24,000 nt of DNA from Kineococcus sp. SYSU DK003 (GCF_050871945.1 NZ_JBJLSI010000012.1:1-24000), one strand, 5' to 3'. Counted from the stretch's first letter, positions 2,356-10,640 are shown. Program-made: numbers and translations. The notes: a model not told the origin generated them from the letters alone.

Positions 2356-2712
2356 ATGACCCAGACCCCCGCCTCCGTGAGCGCCGCGCACCTGCACACC
2401 AGCAACCCCGATGACGCCGGCGTGGACGTCACCGACCTGGCCCAGGCTCGCCGCAAGACCGAGGGTGACGTGGAGGACCTGGCCACCCGCGCCGCCCGGG
2501 CCCGCCAGATCAACGCCCACCGCGCCACCTACGCCGCCGCCGCCGTGCACCGGCACGGCCAAGTCAGCCGCAGCGACGCCGACGGCCTCCCGGAAGCCCT
2601 GGTGGAACTGCTGGCCGACCTGCACCACCTGTGCGACAGCTGCGACATCGACCTGGCGCCCCTGTACCAAGCCGCCGTCCTGGTCCACGCCCGCGAAACC
2701 CACGCCGCCTAA
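2356..2712 (+). CDS. Hypothetical 118-aa protein
   Basis: ATG 2356 with GGAGA 6 nt upstream. Composition is coding-like, with a helical C-terminal motif LVELLADLHHLCDSCDIDL. No family recognised. Confidence 0.55.
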   Translation: MTQTPASVSAAHLHTSNPDDAGVDVTDLAQARRKTEGDVEDLATRAARARQINAHRATYAAAAVHRHGQVSRSDADGLPEALVELLADLHHLCDSCDIDLAPLYQAAVLVHARETHAA

Positions 2713-2876
2713 GCAGCCCCCTCACGTCAGGCCCATCACCTCGAGACCCGCCCGCCCTTGTCCTGTGATGCAGACCCCGCTACCTCTGCTCCTGCTCACC
2801 TCCGGCGCCTGCCCAGGCCCCGCGGCCCAGGACCCAATAGGCTCGATTCAGGTCCTCACCCCATACGTAGCACTGC

Positions 2877-2905
2877 TTGACATTTTCGTGTGATCTTGAG
2901 ATAAT
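2877..2905 (+). promoter_or_regulatory. Near-consensus sigma70/HrdB-type promoter
   Basis: TTGACA (2877-2882), a 17-nt spacer, then GATAAT (2900-2905) with TG at 2897-2898 in the extended -10 position. It lies in a locally AT-rich island (about 2871-2915) within GC-rich DNA. A second TTGACA at 2908-2913 has a poorer -10. Confidence 0.55.
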
Positions 2906-3032
2906 CCTTGACATCACCCCGTAGTGGCCCATAGCCCGCGGGGTTTCGTCATCTCCAGGGTCTTTTTGCAGGACTTCCCGCCCCAGCCGACCACATCCGG
3001 ATGCGCCCCTACCGCCCACTACCTGGCCACCC

Positions 3033-3077
3033 AGCGCCTGATCACTCAGCACCTGATCACTCCGCACCTGATCACTT
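3033..3077 (+). repeat. Three tandem 15-bp repeats containing the palindrome TGATCA
   Basis: AGCGCCTGATCACTC / AGCACCTGATCACTC / CGCACCTGATCACTT. CCTGATCACT is exact at 3037-3046, 3052-3061 and 3067-3076. The repeats lie between the promoter and ATG 3101. Confidence 0.8.
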
Positions 3078-3100
3078 CGCTGTCCGAGCCGGGCGGCAGG

Positions 3101-4183
3101 ATGCAGCCCGTGCCCGCACGCGATCTCCAGCACCCCGCACCCGACCCCAGCGATCTGCCTGCTGACCTGCCGGAGGGCTACGCCGAGCTGCTCGAACAGC
3201 TCAAGGCCCGCGTGGCCACCGCCCGCGTGCGCGCCGCCCGCGCCGCCAACACCGAACTGCTCCGGCTGTACTGGTCCATCGGGCACGACATCCTGCAGCG
3301 TCAGCACGACGCCGGCTGGGGGGCCAAGGTCATCGCCCGCCTAGCTGATGACCTCCGTGAGGCCTTCCCCGACCAGCGCGGCTTCTCCCGCCGCAACCTG
3401 CAGTACATGCGCGCCGCCGCCGCGGCCTGGCCCCAGGAGGCCGACTTTGTGCAACAGGCCGTTGCACAATTGCCCTGGGGCCACCTCACCGTCCTGCTGG
3501 GCCGCCTGGATGAGCGCGCCGTCCGCGACTGGTACGCCACCCAGGCCCTGCAGCACGGCTGGTCCCGCGACGTGCTGGCCAACCAGATCGACTCCGGCCT
3601 GCACACCCGCATCGGCACCGCCCCCTCCAACTTCACCACCCAGCTGCCCCAGCCCGACTCCGAACTGGCCCAGCAGCTGACCCGCGACCCTTACGTCTTC
3701 GACCACCTGGCCATCACCGACCGCGCCAGCGAGCGGGCCATGGAACAAGGTCTGGTCGAGCGCCTGCAGCAGACGCTGACCGCCTTCGGGCACGGCATGG
3801 CCTTCGTCGGCCGTCAGGTCCGCTTCACCGTCGGCGACGAAGAGATGATCATCGACCTGCTGCTGTTCCACATCCCGCAGGTCCGCTACATCGTCATCGA
3901 ACTGAAGATCGGACGCTTCAGCCCCGCCTACACCGGCCAGCTCGGCGCCTACGTCGCCCTCATCGACGACCGCCTGCGCGATGAGGCCATCCACGCCCCC
4001 ACCGTGGGGATCCTGCTGTGCAAAGACCGCGACGAACAAGTCGTGCGCTACGCCCTGGCCGGCGCCCCGGCCCCCATGGCGGTGGCCACCTACACCTACG
4101 ACACCCTGCCCCCCGACCAACGCGCCGGACTGCCCGATGCGGCCACTTTGACTGCTGCCATCACCCCCCGACAGGCGGAGTGA
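3101..4183 (+). CDS. DUF1016 / YhcG-family PD-(D/E)XK nuclease-fold protein
   Basis: N-terminal region YAELLEQLKARV...NTELLRLYWSIGHDIL...FSRRNLQYMR...LPWGHLTVLL. C-terminal core MIIDLLLFHIPQVRYIVIELKIGRFSPAYTGQLGAYVALID (D ... E-L-K). ATG 3101 gives about 360 aa, typical for the family. An in-frame GTG at 2924 is an alternative start (see findings). Confidence 0.85.
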   Translation: MQPVPARDLQHPAPDPSDLPADLPEGYAELLEQLKARVATARVRAARAANTELLRLYWSIGHDILQRQHDAGWGAKVIARLADDLREAFPDQRGFSRRNLQYMRAAAAAWPQEADFVQQAVAQLPWGHLTVLLGRLDERAVRDWYATQALQHGWSRDVLANQIDSGLHTRIGTAPSNFTTQLPQPDSELAQQLTRDPYVFDHLAITDRASERAMEQGLVERLQQTLTAFGHGMAFVGRQVRFTVGDEEMIIDLLLFHIPQVRYIVIELKIGRFSPAYTGQLGAYVALIDDRLRDEAIHAPTVGILLCKDRDEQVVRYALAGAPAPMAVATYTYDTLPPDQRAGLPDAATLTAAITPRQAE

Positions 4184-4189
4184 GCTGTT

Positions 4190-5731
4190 ATGGCCTTGGG
4201 CATCTTCCGTAGCTTCAACAAGGAGAAAAGTCCGCTCTCCTACCATCTGCGTCAGCGCTTCCTGCGCCCAGCCGAGCGCCAGGTCGAACAGATCCCGCTG
4301 GAGGAGTTGACGGACCCCGGCGCCTTGGCGCACCGCCTCGCCGAGCAGTACAGGGTTCAGCCCCCAACGTTGCACGGACGTGAGGCCGCGCGCGACGGCG
4401 ACGACGGTGAGCCTCGCCCCACTGGCACCGCAGCTGTGCGGCTACCCACCACCCGCTTCTACGTCGCCATTCAGGTCACCGGCGAGGTAGAGCTGCTGGA
4501 GTGGTGGCCAGACACACTGGGCGCGAACCTGTCCCCGGTCGACCACGGGCTGGGCGAGTGGATTTCCCCCGCCCCTGGCACGCCTTTCGACGCCGCTGAG
4601 GCATTGCGCCGCCACCGGGCTTTGCTCGCGCAAGACCTGTGGACCATCGGGCGCCGCAGCGACCCCGGTCCCTTGGCGCTATACACCTTCCTCGATCTGA
4701 CCGACGACGAGCTCGACGAGCTCGCCACAAACGGGCGGGACCTGAGCGCCGAGGTTGATGAGTCCCTGATGGTGATCAAGCCGATCGTCGAGGCCATCGC
4801 CGCGCAGACCCGCGCTTTCTTCGACACTGAGATGCCGCGGCATCTGCAGCAGCTGATCGAGGCCAGACGCCGACACCTGCAGGGCCGACGTCGGGCGGTG
4901 CGCAGCTTGATTTGGCCGACGGGCTGGAAGTACGACTCCCCTGCACTGACCGCGCTACCTGGCACACCTACCCCCAGCCCCGAGGCGGGGGCTAACACCC
5001 ACCCCATGCTCATCCCCCGATCCACGCCCGCGGGGCAATCCGGACCTGATTTCGAGCAACAGTCCAGGGCGGACGAGGCAGCGCATACCTTGATCGATGA
5101 GTCCGCCTCGGTTGACGACACCTTGGTCCGCGGTGTCGCGGTTCGCGACGTCGCCCTCGGGCTGCCGGCCCGGTTGGCCGATGCGTCCTTCACTGACCTG
5201 CTGCGCACGATCCGGGTGTGGGCCGATGCCGTGCACCGCCACCCCACCGCCTACGTGCGATTGGCAGAAGAACGCATCAGTGACCTGCTGGCCGCCACCC
5301 TCAACGCCGCCCTGCCCGGAGCCCAGCGCGAGGTCTACAGCCGCAGCGGCAAGACCGACCTGTACGTGCGCGCCGACGTGCTGGCCACCGGAGCAGCCCC
5401 CGCCAAGGTCTTCATCTGCGAGTGCAAGCGCTGGAGCGGGCCCAGCCAAGTTGCCGGCGACCTCGACCAACTGCTGGGCTACCTCGACGGCACCGACACC
5501 GCCGCGGTCCTGCTGTACATCGTCGACCGCACCCGTCCCCACCTCGTGCACGAGGCCGCTGCCGCCAAGCTGCGTGAGCGGCCCGAGTACCGCAACGATG
5601 AGGAGTCGATCGTGGACGGCTGGCCGTTACTGAACTTGCAAACCCCAACCGGCCGCGTCCGCCTATGTCTGGTCTTCCTCGACCTGCCTGCCACACGCTC
5701 CGCCGCAGACCACAAAGCCAGGCGGCAGTAA
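4190..5731 (+). CDS. Unrecognised 513-aa protein with a C-terminal PD-(D/E)XK-like nuclease core
   Basis: ATG 4190 lies 6 nt after the upstream stop, with GGCGGAG 9 nt upstream. The C-terminus reads EERISDLLAATLNAAL...GKTDLYVRAD...KVFICECKRWSGPSQVAGDLDQLLGYL (Asp 5357-5359, Glu-Cys-Lys 5420-5428). The first ~350 aa match no family I recognise. Confidence 0.75.
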   Translation: MALGIFRSFNKEKSPLSYHLRQRFLRPAERQVEQIPLEELTDPGALAHRLAEQYRVQPPTLHGREAARDGDDGEPRPTGTAAVRLPTTRFYVAIQVTGEVELLEWWPDTLGANLSPVDHGLGEWISPAPGTPFDAAEALRRHRALLAQDLWTIGRRSDPGPLALYTFLDLTDDELDELATNGRDLSAEVDESLMVIKPIVEAIAAQTRAFFDTEMPRHLQQLIEARRRHLQGRRRAVRSLIWPTGWKYDSPALTALPGTPTPSPEAGANTHPMLIPRSTPAGQSGPDFEQQSRADEAAHTLIDESASVDDTLVRGVAVRDVALGLPARLADASFTDLLRTIRVWADAVHRHPTAYVRLAEERISDLLAATLNAALPGAQREVYSRSGKTDLYVRADVLATGAAPAKVFICECKRWSGPSQVAGDLDQLLGYLDGTDTAAVLLYIVDRTRPHLVHEAAAAKLRERPEYRNDEESIVDGWPLLNLQTPTGRVRLCLVFLDLPATRSAADHKARRQ

Positions 5732-5831
5732 GTCGCACCTTCACGCATCGGCTACTGGGTGAGCAGATGCAATGCGACGTAGGCGGTTAGTCCGCACGGG
5801 TGAACTTTGGCGATCGTCGTGACAAGCGTCG

Positions 5832-5863
5832 CGCATAACCTCGTGAGGACACGAGGTTATGCG
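5832..5863. terminator. Perfect 14-bp inverted repeat with a 4-nt loop (terminator or operator)
   Basis: CGCATAACCTCGTG-agga-CACGAGGTTATGCG, about 100 nt after the stop at 5731. There is no T-tract. It is unusually AT-rich for this DNA. Confidence 0.45.
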
Positions 5864-5993
5864 TGACGCCTTGTCCGGGTCTAGAGCCGTTCCGGTGAAC
5901 CCTGGACCTCGAATTTCCTATGCCGCCATAGTCATCGTGCACGCCACAGCCACGAGGACTCGCCCGTCGAGTCGCACCTCCGAGGAGGCCCTG

Positions 5994-6221
5994 TTGAGCA
6001 ACATTCAGTGGACCCACGTTCACTCGTCTCGCATCACGGCCGAGGCCTACGACGCCGTCAAGCAGCGGATTTACGTGCGCTTTCCCGACGGAGTCGAGTA
6101 CTGGTACGGCAACTGCACGCCGGAGGTCTGGGCGGACTTCACCGCACCCGGGCAATCGCGCGGAAAGTACATCGCCGCCCACCTGGATGAGAGACCCAGG
6201 GGACACCTCAATCGTCGATGA
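5994..6221 (+). CDS. KTSC-domain protein (about 75 aa)
   Basis: HSSRITAEAYDAVKQRIYVRFPDGVEYWYGNCTPEVWADFTAPGQSRGKYIAAHL follows the KTSC pattern (S..I..v.Yd......L.V.F..G..Y.Y..VP...y..l......sKG.yf...I). TTG 5994 is preceded by GAGGAGG (5982-5988). The longer tracked ORF (from 5859) starts inside the hairpin and was trimmed. Confidence 0.65.
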   Translation: MSNIQWTHVHSSRITAEAYDAVKQRIYVRFPDGVEYWYGNCTPEVWADFTAPGQSRGKYIAAHLDERPRGHLNRR

Positions 6222-6982
6222 ACTTCGCCGCCACAGTTCGCGAACGCGCTTCCGCAGTCTCTGTGCAGTGCTGCAGGTCAGTTGCTGCGCAAGGCCCAAC
6301 GCTGACTGCGGGTCGCCGACCTACGCGCCGCCGCGGGGTACTAGCGATCGAGACGCTCGGTCACGACAGCAGCTACAGCCGCGGCTGGAAGTGCACCGTC
6401 GGCGATAGAGACCGGCGACGGTGAGCAACAGTCGCCGTCTGGCGCACCGCGGCCTTCGGGCAGATCCTCCCCGGCGGCCCTCATGCCTTGCTCCCCGACG
6501 AGCGCTGCCAAGATCACTCGAGTACGCAGCAAACGCAGCCGACAGAGCGGTCGTGACCGATCCCGTCACGACCTCGCAGTCCTCGCCGCCTTCCAAGGCG
6601 GGGAACACTGTCTGGTATGGGCTCGGCGTAAGAACGATGGCACCCTGTTCCACCTGCGCGACGGTCAGGCCACAGCAGTCAGAGCTTGGGCCAAGGAGCA
6701 TCTGGAATGCTTCATGCCCGAGTGCGCCGACCGCCGGCTGACCACGGTCGCTAGTGGCGAGCTCGGCCTCCGCCGACGGCGCCCCATCACTGGCCGAGCC
6801 CGCGGAAGCTTGACTGGTCTGGCGGAGGCCATCGCATCGTCAAGAGCCCCACCGTGAGCCTGAAGCCCTCGCGTCACACCTCGGTGACTGACACCAGAAG
6901 TGATGCGTTCATCTGACTGCTCGCGCATGATCAACGTGCCCGCCTAGCCTGACGGTCCGCAGCCACTGAAGGAGTCCCAGCC

Positions 6983-9277
6983 GTGTCTCAGCCCTCTTAC
7001 CAACCGCGACTGCTTTCTGATGAGCCCCTCGACGCTGATGCCGCAGCTACCGATCAGCTGGGACGCGGACGCTTGGCAGCACACCTTCAGGTACTCCTCA
7101 CACGTTTGCGCCGCCAGCGCGCTTCAAGCGTCGTCGGGCTCGTCGGTCCATGGGGATCGGGCAAGACGAGCGTGTTGAACCTGCTGCAACAGCGTCTGCA
7201 CGCAGGCAACGCGGGTGAGCGCGACGGCTGGATCGTCACATGGTTCACCCCCTGGCTGTATAGCGACGCCGAAACTTTGCAGCGCGGTTTCTTCGCCGAG
7301 CTCCGGCAGGCGATGCCAGCGGATACGCGCTGGCGTGAAACCCGCACCCAGCTGGCCAAGGTTGCCAACGCGCTCACTCCGCTAGCTGCCCTGGCCCAGG
7401 TCGGCGGCGTCAACGGCGAGAAGCCAGCAGAGATGCTGCGGGACTGGATCGCCGGAGACACCAGCGTCTCCGCTACCCACCGGCAAGCCGCCGACGCGCT
7501 GGATCGACTTGATCAGCCCATCCTGGTGATCCTGGACGATCTCGACCGCCTCGAAGCGCCCGAGCTGCTACTGACCATCAAGCTCGTGCGAATGATCGGG
7601 CGCCTGCCCAACGTGCATTATCTACTCAGCTACGACGAGCAAACCCTCGTCGACCTGCTCAAACACACGTCCCTCGTCGGCGACAACGACCAACGAGCCC
7701 TGGACTACCTCGAAAAACTTGTCCAAGTCCGGGTCGACCTCCCCGCCCTACGTCCCTACCAGCGCACCACCCTGCTCACGACAGCTCTCAACGCTGTCCG
7801 CGACGAGCGCTACGCCCCCTTGACCAACGAGCAGGCCCAGCGCCTACGAACTCACCTCCACGAACACGGTCTCTTGCAGCGCCTCGACAGCCCCCGCACG
7901 ATCAACCGAGTCATGGGACAGATCGACGCCTTCCACGGCCTACTCGACGGAGAGGTCGACTTCGTCGACTATCTCGTCATCACCTGGCTGCGGACCGAGG
8001 AACCGCGGGTCTACCGCATGCTGGAGCAATACCGTGACCAACTGTTGGGCCAATCCCACGAGCAACTCACCCGACGGCTAGCTGCCTCCACCCGCGACTG
8101 GACCATCGTCCAGCAGCGGTGGCGTCAGCGCATCACCGACGCAGTCGCCGACCCAGCCAACAGCGACTCCATACTGCAACTTCTTACGTCTCTCTTCCCC
8201 GTCTTGCAGGCCGAGTTGACAGGCAACCTGCCGAATCCTCAAAGTACCAACTCGATCGCGCAACGGCGCGGTGTGGGCCACCCCTACTACTTCGACCACT
8301 ACTTCAGCTTCGGAGTGCCCGAGGAAGGGCTAGCCGACACCGTCGTCCGCGACGCACTCACCGCCCTGAGCGGGCACCAAGAAGTCGATGTCATCGAAGG
8401 CAACGACAACACCGACGGTCCCGATGACCCCGCCGTAGCGACCGTCCGCGCTGAACTACACGGCGACGTCGAACGAGTCACCTGGAAACTGGAGCACTAC
8501 CTCACACCCGGGCATCCGGCCACCACAGGGCTGCTCGACCTCGTCGCCCACGAGTTCGGCCGTCTCAACGACGGCGAAGTTGGTTTGCTCTTGAGCCGGC
8601 GCAATGTGGTGGAAGGCTTCATCTATCGGCTCCTGGCACGCACCGATCCTTCGGACGTTCTTGCCTTCACTGATCGACAACTGGCCACCGACGACGGGCT
8701 CCGATTGATGGGCATCGTGGCCCGCATTGCCCGTCCCAACAATGACCCGATCGACTCCACCGGAGCGCTGCACACTGCACCGCCGTGGAGCGAGGAGGTC
8801 ACCCGCCGAACCGCCGCCGCCTACGCCGTCCGCCACGAAACGGATCGCACGCACACCTTGGACGTCTTTGACCGAGTCGGTGTAGGCCGTTGGTACTCCT
8901 GGTGGTCCCTGGATTCCAGCGCCGCTGCCACCTGGCTGCGAGAGCAGGTGCAGACGGGGCGATGGGACCTGTGGAGTGTCCTGGCCACCTGGATCGGCAC
9001 CCGACGTATCGTCGGCGCCGACGACGCTCCCGCCCGCGTCGCTGAACTCGACGACCACCTCGTAGAGCAAGTATTTGGTATCGACTGGGTCCTGGAGAAA
9101 CTTCACAGCAGAATTACTGCGACCACCGCTCCAGCAGTCCACTGGGGCGAGGACCTACCTGACACCCCAACGAACCGCGACCGCGTCGTCCTCACCACCC
9201 TTCAGCACTGGGCACACCAGCGCGAGGCCGCGACGCCCTCAACTTCTGCTGCTGATGACGACGCCAGTGCACCATAG
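6983..9277 (+). CDS. KAP-family P-loop NTPase (764 aa)
   Basis: GTG 6983 with GAAGGAG (6968-6974). DQLGRGRLAAHL..., Walker A GLVGPWGSGKTS, WFTPWLY, Walker B PILVILDDLDRL, and LLTIKLVRMIGRLPNVHYLLSYDEQTL together give the KAP (PF07693-type) layout. The C-terminal ~450 aa are unassigned. Confidence 0.9.
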   Translation: MSQPSYQPRLLSDEPLDADAAATDQLGRGRLAAHLQVLLTRLRRQRASSVVGLVGPWGSGKTSVLNLLQQRLHAGNAGERDGWIVTWFTPWLYSDAETLQRGFFAELRQAMPADTRWRETRTQLAKVANALTPLAALAQVGGVNGEKPAEMLRDWIAGDTSVSATHRQAADALDRLDQPILVILDDLDRLEAPELLLTIKLVRMIGRLPNVHYLLSYDEQTLVDLLKHTSLVGDNDQRALDYLEKLVQVRVDLPALRPYQRTTLLTTALNAVRDERYAPLTNEQAQRLRTHLHEHGLLQRLDSPRTINRVMGQIDAFHGLLDGEVDFVDYLVITWLRTEEPRVYRMLEQYRDQLLGQSHEQLTRRLAASTRDWTIVQQRWRQRITDAVADPANSDSILQLLTSLFPVLQAELTGNLPNPQSTNSIAQRRGVGHPYYFDHYFSFGVPEEGLADTVVRDALTALSGHQEVDVIEGNDNTDGPDDPAVATVRAELHGDVERVTWKLEHYLTPGHPATTGLLDLVAHEFGRLNDGEVGLLLSRRNVVEGFIYRLLARTDPSDVLAFTDRQLATDDGLRLMGIVARIARPNNDPIDSTGALHTAPPWSEEVTRRTAAAYAVRHETDRTHTLDVFDRVGVGRWYSWWSLDSSAAATWLREQVQTGRWDLWSVLATWIGTRRIVGADDAPARVAELDDHLVEQVFGIDWVLEKLHSRITATTAPAVHWGEDLPDTPTNRDRVVLTTLQHWAHQREAATPSTSAADDDASAP

Positions 9278-9941
9278 CCAGCCGCCGGCTCCGTTCCGAC
9301 CGGCGATGACCACGTGGCGCACCCGCAACCCAGTTCAGCCGCCCCGTTACCTCCCGGGTGGTGGCGATAGCCGGGCCCGGCGTGGCCGCGGGCCTCACCG
9401 GTGCGTCCTGGCTCTGGATCGCCACGACCACCACGGTCCCGGCGCCAGTCAGCGGTCTCCTCGTCATGGCGTCGCCGGTCACCCCGACGACGTTGCGCGG
9501 GACGCCTGGGCACGCAACGGGACGGTCGGCTGGTCTGCCCAACCACCGCGGCATCTCCCGCAACGGTAGACCCGCAGGCGCGCTCCCGGCCACCCACCTG
9601 CGCGTGACAGCTCGACTGCGTACTGGCCAACACCAACAGGGGCGCGATGCGCCTGCGGTAACGAACCGCTGCACGCACACACGAAGCGCCCTAACCCCGC
9701 GATGCAGCGTGGACCCGAGGTGAGCGCGCCTCGCCCCCCAGCGCGCCAACGCCTTGGGCAGTGCGTCAAAGCTGCTTGCGCCACGCCGACACCGAGCCGG
9801 AGCGCAGCACCGGACACCGCCGGTCGTAGCGTGGTCCTCCCAGGCTCCTGCCTGACCCGCACCACGCGGACCTCACGCGGACGCCGCGCATCCCCTCCAC
9901 CCACGTCGCCCCCTATCGCGTTTCGCACAAGGAGCCCTCTG

Positions 9942-10640
9942 GTGAACAAGACCGAACTCGTCGATGCCCTCGAAACCCGCCTGGGCGGACGCAGGGAGGC
10001 CCTGGCCGCCCTGGAGGCGGTCCTGGAGGTCATCACCCTGACCGTGGCCAAGGGCGACAAAGTCACCCTCACCGGCTTCGGCACCTTCGAAAAGCAGACC
10101 CGCAACGCCCGCACCGGACGCAACCCCCGCACCGGCGAACCCGTCAAGATCAAGAAGACGTCCATGCCGCGTTTCCGCGCCGGCACCGCCTTCAAGGCCG
10201 TCGTCTCCGACACCAAGACCCTGCGTGCCTACCAGGCCGGCATCAAGGAACGCGCCGCCAGTGCCAACGCTGCCGCCAGCAGCAGCACCGCGGCGGCCAC
10301 CCCCAGGACCGCCGGCACCAAGACCACCACCACCGCGAGGGCAACTGCTGCCAACAAGGCAGCCAAGAAGGCGGGACCCGCCCGCACAACCACGGGTACG
10401 GCCACCAAGCCAGCCACCACACCGGCCGCCGCGACGCGCCCCCGCACGATCACCAAACCGGCCGCCACCACAGGGACGGCGACAGGGACGGCGACGGGGA
10501 CGGCAACCAGGGCCACGAAGAAGGCAGCCTCGGCCACCCCCAGCACAACCCGCGTCACCAACGCAGCGACCCGCGCCACCGCGACGAAGACCTCCGCGGC
10601 CAAGAAGGGGACCACCGCCCGGGCGGCGAAGAAAGCCTGA
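9942..10640 (+). CDS. hup: HU-family nucleoid protein with a long Thr/Ala/Lys-rich C-terminal tail (HupB/HupS/Hlp type)
   Basis: GTG 9942 with AAGGAG (9929-9934). MNKTELVDAL...VTLTGFGTFEKQTRNARTGRNPRTGEPVKIKKTSMPRFRAGTAFKAVV is a canonical HU fold. A ~140-aa low-complexity tail follows, including TGTATGTATGTAT. The 9702-9941 part of the tracked ORF was rejected. Confidence 0.9.
   Translation: MNKTELVDALETRLGGRREALAALEAVLEVITLTVAKGDKVTLTGFGTFEKQTRNARTGRNPRTGEPVKIKKTSMPRFRAGTAFKAVVSDTKTLRAYQAGIKERAASANAAASSSTAAATPRTAGTKTTTTARATAANKAAKKAGPARTTTGTATKPATTPAAATRPRTITKPAATTGTATGTATGTATRATKKAASATPSTTRVTNAATRATATKTSAAKKGTTARAAKKA

Follow-up and report, generated by a model that had tools for sequence, protein, structure and literature searches.

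Two candidate defence nucleases, a DUF1016/YhcG protein and a divergent PDC-S54 relative, probably joined from independent single genes in Kineococcus

Our analyses favour a model in which two autonomous candidate defence nucleases have been joined into one transcription unit in Kineococcus, the second of them being a self-contained sensor-nuclease of the PDC-S54 family; we consider this model probable. The two genes lie in a stretch of 24,000 nucleotides from Kineococcus sp. SYSU DK003 (GCF_050871945.1 NZ_JBJLSI010000012.1:1-24000), referred to at its full length as the window, and the product of each is 100% identical to an NCBI protein of this strain. Open reading frame (ORF) 1 (3101..4183, + strand; 360 residues from the ATG at 3101) codes for a DUF1016_N plus YhcG_C PD-(D/E)xK nuclease that matches the PADLOC family PDC-S02. 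ORF2 (4190..5731, + strand; 513 residues), whose identical NCBI protein is labelled hypothetical protein, is assigned by profile, alignment and family searches to a divergent actinobacterial branch of PDC-S54. A preliminary description of this DNA had read the pair as a self-contained dual-nuclease module; what stands of that reading is a block with a conserved junction in one Kineococcus clade, outside which the linkage is absent.

The independence of the two genes is apparent from the side of ORF2 as well as from that of ORF1. Taking one genome per species, we collected 34 loci with ORF2-type genes, namely K. terrestris (L001), 22 loci with full-length homologues (L002-L023) and 11 with the C-terminal domain only. 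Within 8 kb of these loci, tblastn with ORF1 returned no DUF1016 sequence at E<=10, except for a 32-residue remnant in K. terrestris, and neither DUF1016 nor PDC-S02 was among the families listed for 87 flanking genes by Pfam and PADLOC. Thus, of the two links that the preliminary description had proposed to look for around ORF2 homologues, that to DUF1016 is missing beside L002-L023 and that to defence genes was found, as described below. No DUF1016 is annotated in L039-L041, two further metagenome or genome contexts with ORF2 homologues of 45% and 40% identity. Outside the clade, ORF2 homologues without DUF1016 occupy about two dozen contexts at 30-45% identity; a homologue of 57% identity lies at a contig end, with an uninformative upstream side. 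As for ORF1, DUF1016 forms at least 2401 clusters, among the candidates scored at E<=1e-40, in the same database in which ORF2 has 56, which makes it at least 40 times more abundant. The closest DUF1016 proteins outside the cassette, from K. xinjiangensis (79% identity) and K. rubinsiae (70%), are followed by convergent unrelated genes and have no ORF2 relative nearby. ORF1 is 79% identical to its solo homologue versus 69-70% to its cassette counterparts, and ORF2 is 77% identical to its own counterparts.

Within Kineococcus, the ORF1 and ORF2 block was found four times, in the window, L035/L036, L046 and L045, each time between unrelated flanking sequences, and the pair is limited to a clade with at least 74% identity. 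Nucleotide homology of the related cassettes to the window spans only the two coding sequences, from 3081-3150 to 5730-5746. In the window, as previously described, the genes lie 6 nucleotides apart on the + strand, and the junction GGCGGAG-TGA-6 nt-ATG (4174..4192, + strand) comprises a Shine-Dalgarno-like run (4174-4180) overlapping the end of ORF1, the ORF1 stop (TGA, 4181-4183) and the ORF2 start (ATG, 4190). The same junction, in the form GGCGGAG-TGA-6 nt-RTG, is kept in the remnant of K. terrestris (L001) as well as in L035, L045 and L046, and such a layout would permit co-transcription and translational coupling.

In two loci of the clade, one gene persists where the other is lost or broken. 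K. terrestris (L001) has an intact ORF2 with 74% identity and a ratio of nonsynonymous to synonymous substitution rates (dN/dS) of 0.27, and directly upstream only a 32-residue 3' remnant of DUF1016. The DUF1016 slot is occupied by an insert of lower GC content (L001:6300-7995) carrying a gene for a GIY-YIG protein (Pfam E 1.2e-5), of a classical homing-endonuclease family, and a 114-residue ORF; after the insert come the last ~130 nucleotides of DUF1016. A small nuclease gene has here taken the place of another, immediately ahead of the same defence gene. In L045 (GCA_050871645.1), an intact DUF1016 accompanies an ORF2 homologue (5938-7490) that breaks into two overlapping frames within the disordered linker; the break could reflect either a pseudogene or a sequencing or assembly error in a repetitive GC-rich stretch. 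Gene loss is hence reciprocal, and neither cross-lineage co-occurrence nor mutual dependence, the marks of a multi-gene system, was found. It appears that the two genes were brought together once, recently and at genus level, and that the block was subsequently inherited and moved; it does not resemble a conserved system. We also considered a toxin-antitoxin pair and rejected it: both proteins are large nucleases, neither is antitoxin-like and each survives loss of the other.

ORF2 is under purifying selection (dN/dS 0.27-0.31) and gave no match in Pfam or NCBIfam at E<=10, whether searched whole or as halves. It is divided into an N-terminal module (residues 1-248; 4190..4933, + strand), a linker predicted to be disordered (residues ~250-330; 4937..5179, + strand) and a C-terminal PD-(D/E)xK domain (residues ~333-500; 5186..5689, + strand), identified by invariant columns, the PDC-S54 match and the order of secondary-structure elements. 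The AlphaFold2 model of the whole protein has a predicted local distance difference test score (pLDDT) of 81.8 and contains two confident domains, 1-245 and 333-500, separated by residues 259-328 with pLDDT <50. Block means exceed 90 over most of residues 1-245, and values in the nuclease core are mostly 84-97, with ~53-70 over 371-410 (beta1-beta2 and the 396-405 loop). The preliminary description had left about 350 N-terminal residues unplaced. They still lack a family match, but because residues 250-330 are disordered, the unplaced part amounts to a folded domain of ~245 residues plus a linker.

For the C-terminal domain, the E...D...ExK core that had been recognised earlier proved invariant across 46 aligned homologues (34% mean column identity). 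E360 (5267-5269), D390 (5357-5359), E411 (5420-5422), K413 (5426-5428) and Y431 (5480-5482) are invariant, and Q427 (5468-5470) is kept in at least 90%, all coordinates being on the + strand; D365, R380-E381-V382 and G387 are also invariant in the same alignment. The QxxxY on the helix that follows E...D...ExK is what we take to be the RecB/Cas4-type motif. In the model, the secondary structure assigned by DSSP (H360-374, E378-385, E388-395, E406-414, H418-431, E438-446) follows the order alpha-beta-beta-beta-alpha-beta of PD-(D/E)xK enzymes, and the invariant residues fall on the expected elements. Comparison with solved structures was less informative: a Foldseek search of the PDB with the full model gave MspJI (4f0p_C) as the top match, and a weak one (E 0.016, probability 0.82, template modelling score 0.14-0.16), and a profile of the C-terminal domain found nothing meaningful among all PDB sequences. 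When this domain was aligned to a DUF1016/YhcG_C alignment with hhalign, the ExK and QxxxY motifs lined up but the score was not significant, and the ORF1 and ORF2 nucleases are therefore not close paralogues. Based on motif conservation, topology and family membership, and not on a solved-structure match, we assign the ORF2 C-terminus as a predicted PD-(D/E)xK nuclease.

The N-terminal module consists of an alpha/beta domain, in which W106-P107 and P116-x-D118 are invariant, and a subsequent helix of ~55 residues (185-239). Modelled alone, the domain reached a pLDDT of 92.6 and a predicted template modelling score of 0.88 (AlphaFold), and Foldseek found no fold match for it in the PDB (best E 0.28, probability 0.06) or in BFVD; its profile likewise had no match among PDB sequences or in Pfam. 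The structural check suggested in the preliminary description thus returned a confident model, a nuclease-like C-terminus and an N-domain that resembles no deposited fold in these searches. Hits of ORF2 to nucleotidyltransferase folds (poly(A) polymerase, TUT7, OAS1; E 0.06-0.3, root-mean-square deviation 17-20 A) were set aside as noise because the isolated N-domain model gave none of them.

With the N-domain profile, a hidden Markov model search run exhaustively over 1.84 billion representatives returned 112 proteins, nearly all of the same architecture. In three others the ORF2-type N-module is joined to a different C-terminus: an alpha/beta hydrolase (P0127; Abhydrolase_6 E 3e-9, with a weak PADLOC LmuA match), a stretch of low complexity with a hydrophobic, predicted transmembrane helix at its end (P0138), and a different region of 380 residues with a possible D...LLK motif (P0122). 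Conversely, the ORF2-type nuclease domain is joined to other N-termini in Bacteroidota and other phyla. The varied C-termini suggest effector swapping on a common module, and we propose that the N-module is a sensor or regulatory module. The preliminary description had distributed sensor and effector over the two proteins; since domain shuffling is typical of sensor-effector immune proteins, any such split would lie within ORF2, between its N-domain and its nuclease, and not between ORF1 and ORF2.

The ORF2 family is small, with only 56 clusters at 90% identity in a word-indexed search of 5.8 billion proteins, most of them of 440-550 residues. All clusters with a named organism are from actinomycetes (Kineococcus, Micromonospora, Nocardia, Rhodococcus, Kribbella, Blastococcus, Modestobacter and Acidimicrobiales), and the majority come from metagenome contigs without taxon assignment. 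ORF2 residues 329-478 match PADLOC PDC-S54 at E 2.8e-30 (profile positions 239-382 of 410). In two relatives, L003 and L017, the profile covers the protein from the long helix on (residues 193-457, positions 138-407), and positions 1-137 have no direct match in ORF2. From the other direction, the N-domain profile weakly reaches P0136 (E 2e-6, in the helix region), a protein of 410 residues that is a true PDC-S54 member (full-length E 5.9e-141), and P0151 (E 6e-4, residues 1-112), which matches profile positions 9-408. We conclude from these profile links that ORF2 is probably a divergent PDC-S54 subfamily, seen only in actinomycetes and unassigned metagenome contigs, and not an unrelated protein. 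The linker varies in length in the family and is longest in the Kineococcus proteins (a disordered insert of ~80 residues).

PDC-S54 belongs to a set of 145 phage defence candidates, each proposed on the ground that a member had been found inside a BREX, DISARM or type I restriction-modification locus (Payne et al. 2024, bioRxiv 10.1101/2024.01.29.577857), and it is not among the seven systems confirmed in that study. PDC-S names are not present in the supplements of the preprint, and we found no mention of PDC-S54 in the literature searched. Profile searches with PADLOC, which the preliminary description had recommended, matched PDC-S02, PDC-S54 and PifA in the region. Its statement that no named system has this composition therefore holds for the pair, which is itself unnamed, but by profile match each gene is already a catalogued single-gene candidate.

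ORF1 is the more familiar of the two proteins. DUF1016 reportedly was predicted to be a PD-(D/E)xK nuclease by Kosinski and colleagues in 2005. The earlier assignment of ORF1 to this family is confirmed by matches far above the Pfam gathering scores, to DUF1016_N (E 3.8e-41; 140.9 bits against a cut-off of 32.8) and YhcG_C (E 2.5e-43; 148.1 bits against 32.5), and by the PDC-S02 match (E 2.4e-128; residues 81-414 of the long ORF on profile positions 19-351 of 357). The catalytic D (in IDLLLF), E-L-K and Q-x3-Y are all intact; among 21 homologues, E267, K269 and Y284 are invariant and D252 is kept in at least 90%, and all are present in the window protein. Values of dN/dS of 0.24-0.47 indicate purifying selection. 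A start at GTG 2924, which would give the long ORF, was rejected, as the extension is unconserved and codes for a tandem repeat. The start is probably ATG 3101 or GTG 3110, because the profile match of the long ORF sets in only at residue 81, homologues have 357-374 residues and cassette DNA homology begins at 3081-3092; the NCBI model of 357 residues implies GTG 3110. Judged by its profile matches, ORF1 is an ordinary full-length YhcG/DUF1016 member, with nothing unusual in the protein itself. Members of this family are strongly enriched beside genes targeted by programmed inversions in restriction-modification and BREX loci (PMC9881135), are embedded in type I restriction-modification operons (PMC9881135), occur in prophages (PMC11341870) and are present in conjugative elements as well (PMC9881135, PMC11341870). 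One PDC-S02 representative expressed in E. coli B gave no protection against T4, T5 or T7 (PMC12881386).

Homologues of ORF2 are found in defence-island neighbourhoods. One has Wadjet-like DUF2397/DUF2398 genes on one side and a Bil cluster (BilD_N, Prok-JAB) on the other, and another, of 57% identity, has an integrase and SMC_N, HATPase_c and TCAD9 genes as neighbours. Others are near PifA-like KAP nucleoside triphosphatases (NTPases; three loci), mad3, QatA, DrmD, SoFic, Aga_SIR2, LmuB and several other PDCs, so that genes of the MADS, Qat and DISARM systems are among the neighbours. We found no relatives in the 2.9 million viral contigs of IMG/VR and no full-length relatives on plasmids, where only C-domain relatives occur (on actinobacterial plasmids), and no transposase or integrase travels with the cassette. 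The PifA-like KAP gene accompanies the ORF2 family in the window and in 3 of 22 further full-length loci, from Aeromicrobium, Microbacterium and Nocardia (L018:5297-7537, L020:9378-11657 and L004:2455-4335); it adjoins the ORF2 homologue on the same strand in L018 and L020. These KAP proteins are ~30% identical to that of the window, about as diverged as the ORF2 homologues are from ORF2, and KAP is absent from the closest relatives (L001, L035, L045 and L046). The association could reflect defence-island clustering or a recurrent partnership.

In our model, the 3.1-5.7 kb region would hold two independent single-gene candidates that now form one co-transcribed block in Kineococcus, within a small variable island made up of an insertion sequence (IS) remnant, ORF1, ORF2, a KTSC gene and a PifA-like KAP NTPase. 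ORF1 would represent the abundant YhcG/DUF1016 family, which habitually sits in or beside restriction-modification and BREX loci. The N-domain of ORF2, with its long helix, may serve in cue recognition and/or oligomerisation, and the flexible linker would couple it to the RecB-like PD-(D/E)xK nuclease (D...ExK...QxxxY). Once the N-module is triggered by infection, the nuclease would cut DNA. Three points weigh against this model. The pair was found four times between unrelated flanking sequences, with CDS-bounded homology (CDS, coding sequence) and a retained junction, which is also how a functional operon would look. The defence role is that of a candidate for both genes, PDC-S54 being a prediction and the PDC-S02 representative having failed to protect against T4, T5 and T7 (PMC12881386). 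Finally, the frameshift of L045 may be an assembly error.

The same observations can be read as a clade-restricted two-nuclease system, in which interdependent, translationally coupled proteins are mobilised as one cassette and, for example, one senses or processes DNA and the other cleaves it. The recurrence of the block between unrelated flanks with homology bounded by the CDSs, the conserved junction and the purifying selection on both genes are what such a system would leave, and the absence of protection by DUF1016 alone in the single published test (PMC12881386) fits the need for a partner. We nevertheless regard this system as unlikely, given that neither gene shows linkage to the other at greater evolutionary depth, that K. 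terrestris keeps a conserved ORF2 after destruction of DUF1016 and L045 shows the converse, and that a solo homologue is closer to ORF1 than the cassette counterparts are. Moreover, because a single juxtaposition event may underlie all four cassettes, they count as one observation. A joint reading, which we find distinctly unlikely, would have the two nucleases of Kineococcus form a translationally coupled immune cassette, mobile as one unit, with DUF1016 as an accessory to a neighbouring effector, and would separately take the N-module for an undescribed sensor fold reused with nuclease, hydrolase and membrane effectors. If true, an accessory role of DUF1016 would explain why it is so often embedded in other defence loci.

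The genes might instead have no part in defence and be selfish or housekeeping nucleases, such as a homing-endonuclease-like hitchhiker or a repair or recombination factor, that accumulate in variable regions. Such an origin would agree with the filling of the K. terrestris DUF1016 slot by a low-GC insert with a GIY-YIG gene, with the occurrence of DUF1016 beside many unrelated systems and in prophages and conjugative elements (PMC9881135, PMC11341870) and with the negative phage test of PDC-S02 (PMC12881386); in addition, PDC status derives solely from guilt by embedding. That recognised defence genes repeatedly flank ORF2 homologues in unrelated genera, that the ORF2 architecture, in which C-terminal effectors can be swapped, is one typical of immune proteins, and that viral contigs lack relatives, plasmids lack full-length ones and the cassette lacks its own transposase or integrase make this explanation improbable in our view. 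Very unlikely, we think, is that ORF2 is an MspJI-type type IV restriction enzyme whose N-domain reads modified bases and whose C-domain cuts nearby. Among PDB folds, MspJI matches the whole model best, and it shares the order of a reader at the N-terminus and a nuclease at the C-terminus, but the match falls short of significance and most likely reflects the shared nuclease core only. The N-domain alone finds neither an SRA nor another reader fold in the PDB, and an N-module that is also joined to a hydrolase or a transmembrane segment fits signal sensing better. We therefore prefer the reading of two autonomous candidates, with ORF2 as a self-contained sensor-nuclease.

The elements that flank the pair differ from its coding sequences in their conservation. 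A sigma-70-like promoter match (TTGACA-17-GATAAT with TG extension; 2877..2905, + strand) lies ~195 nucleotides upstream of the ORF1 start and is particular to this genome; in agreement with the preliminary description, it agrees with the consensus at 11 of 12 positions and is the sole such site in 2500-7000, where 0.3 would be expected. ORF1 and ORF2 may be co-transcribed from it. Between this site and the ORF1 start are three tandem 15-nucleotide repeats (3021..3076, + strand; core CACCTGATCACT; spacing 15, 15), each with the palindrome TGATCA (GATC); they are missing from related cassettes and possibly represent an operator or an iteron-like binding array. The hairpin reported after ORF2 is real and extends beyond the 14 bp given for it: its arms of 20 nucleotides (5826-5845 and 5850-5869; 5826..5869, + strand) are 95% complementary, enclose a 4-nucleotide loop and begin 95 nucleotides past the ORF2 stop. 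It has no T tail, the first ATG of the KTSC ORF falls within its 3' arm, and a terminator scan found no canonical terminator; the hairpin is possibly a terminator of the kind without a T tail. The promoter-like site and the hairpin thus both bracket the pair, as had been claimed, but lie outside the block shared with related cassettes (blastn homology from 3081-3092 to 5730-5746).

The description of the neighbourhood as defence-like was borne out. The KTSC-domain ORF (5859-6221) is probably started downstream of 5859, because its Pfam match begins only at residue 56. It is followed by a PifA-like KAP-family P-loop NTPase (6983..9277, + strand; PADLOC PifA E 1.7e-60), which we treat as context and not as part of the pair. 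The left edge of the variable region is marked by an IS3-type transposase fragment (383-736, - strand; rve_3/rve_2 integrase core, 118 residues). GC content is 0.62-0.68 over 5.5-9 kb and 0.70-0.76 further downstream, where housekeeping genes begin at ~9.7 kb (HU with a K/A/T-rich tail, L31 and a DinB/MST protein). The HU-type DNA-binding protein (9702-10640) has a long Lys/Ala/Thr-rich C-terminal tail of the actinobacterial HupS/Hlp type, and its true start is probably later because ~80 N-terminal residues precede the Bac_DNA_binding domain in the ORF. The IS remnant and the PifA-like KAP NTPase mark the region as a small candidate defence or variable island.

If two autonomous candidates are indeed what the locus holds, the conceptual gain is little: a small island of two catalogued candidates and a PifA-like gene. 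Nonetheless, the locus defines a small PDC-S54 subfamily with an unmatched N-domain fold and provides precise catalytic residues for mutagenesis, and the N-module with its swapped C-terminal effectors leads to a testable sensor-effector hypothesis for the PDC-S54 candidate family. The Kineococcus loci, with the pair intact, DUF1016 lost or ORF2 broken, also constitute a natural experiment on whether DUF1016 acts alone, as an accessory or as a selfish gene.

Among known systems, PDC-S54 is the closest to ORF2, sharing the G-x-x-D...ExK...QxxxY core seen in P0136, the length and layout (N-domain, long helix, nuclease) and the occurrence as single genes in defence islands. ORF2 differs in that it matches only ~145 of 410 profile positions, in its strongly diverged N-domain (WPD instead of QPS in the motif region) and, in Kineococcus, in the disordered insert of ~80 residues. 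ORF1 is a typical YhcG/DUF1016 protein (PF17761 plus PF06250; PDC-S02), its only oddity being the fixed junction with a PDC-S54-like gene in Kineococcus. MspJI resembles ORF2 as its weak best structural match and in placing an N-terminal domain before a C-terminal PD-(D/E)xK nuclease, but the N-domain of ORF2 is not SRA-like by fold search and there is no sequence similarity. In Lamassu, the comparison concerns LmuA: the ORF2-type N-module is combined with alternative effectors (nuclease, alpha/beta hydrolase with a weak LmuA match, transmembrane segment), in the manner of the exchangeable effectors of Lamassu and other systems, whereas ORF2 itself has no LmuA match and the window contains no LmuB/LmuC SMC partner. 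Although ORF2 has no DUF4263 or SduA match in Pfam or PADLOC and is not a member of Shedu, it shares with SduA the organisation of a single protein in which a variable N-terminal regulatory or sensing region precedes a C-terminal PD-(D/E)xK nuclease.

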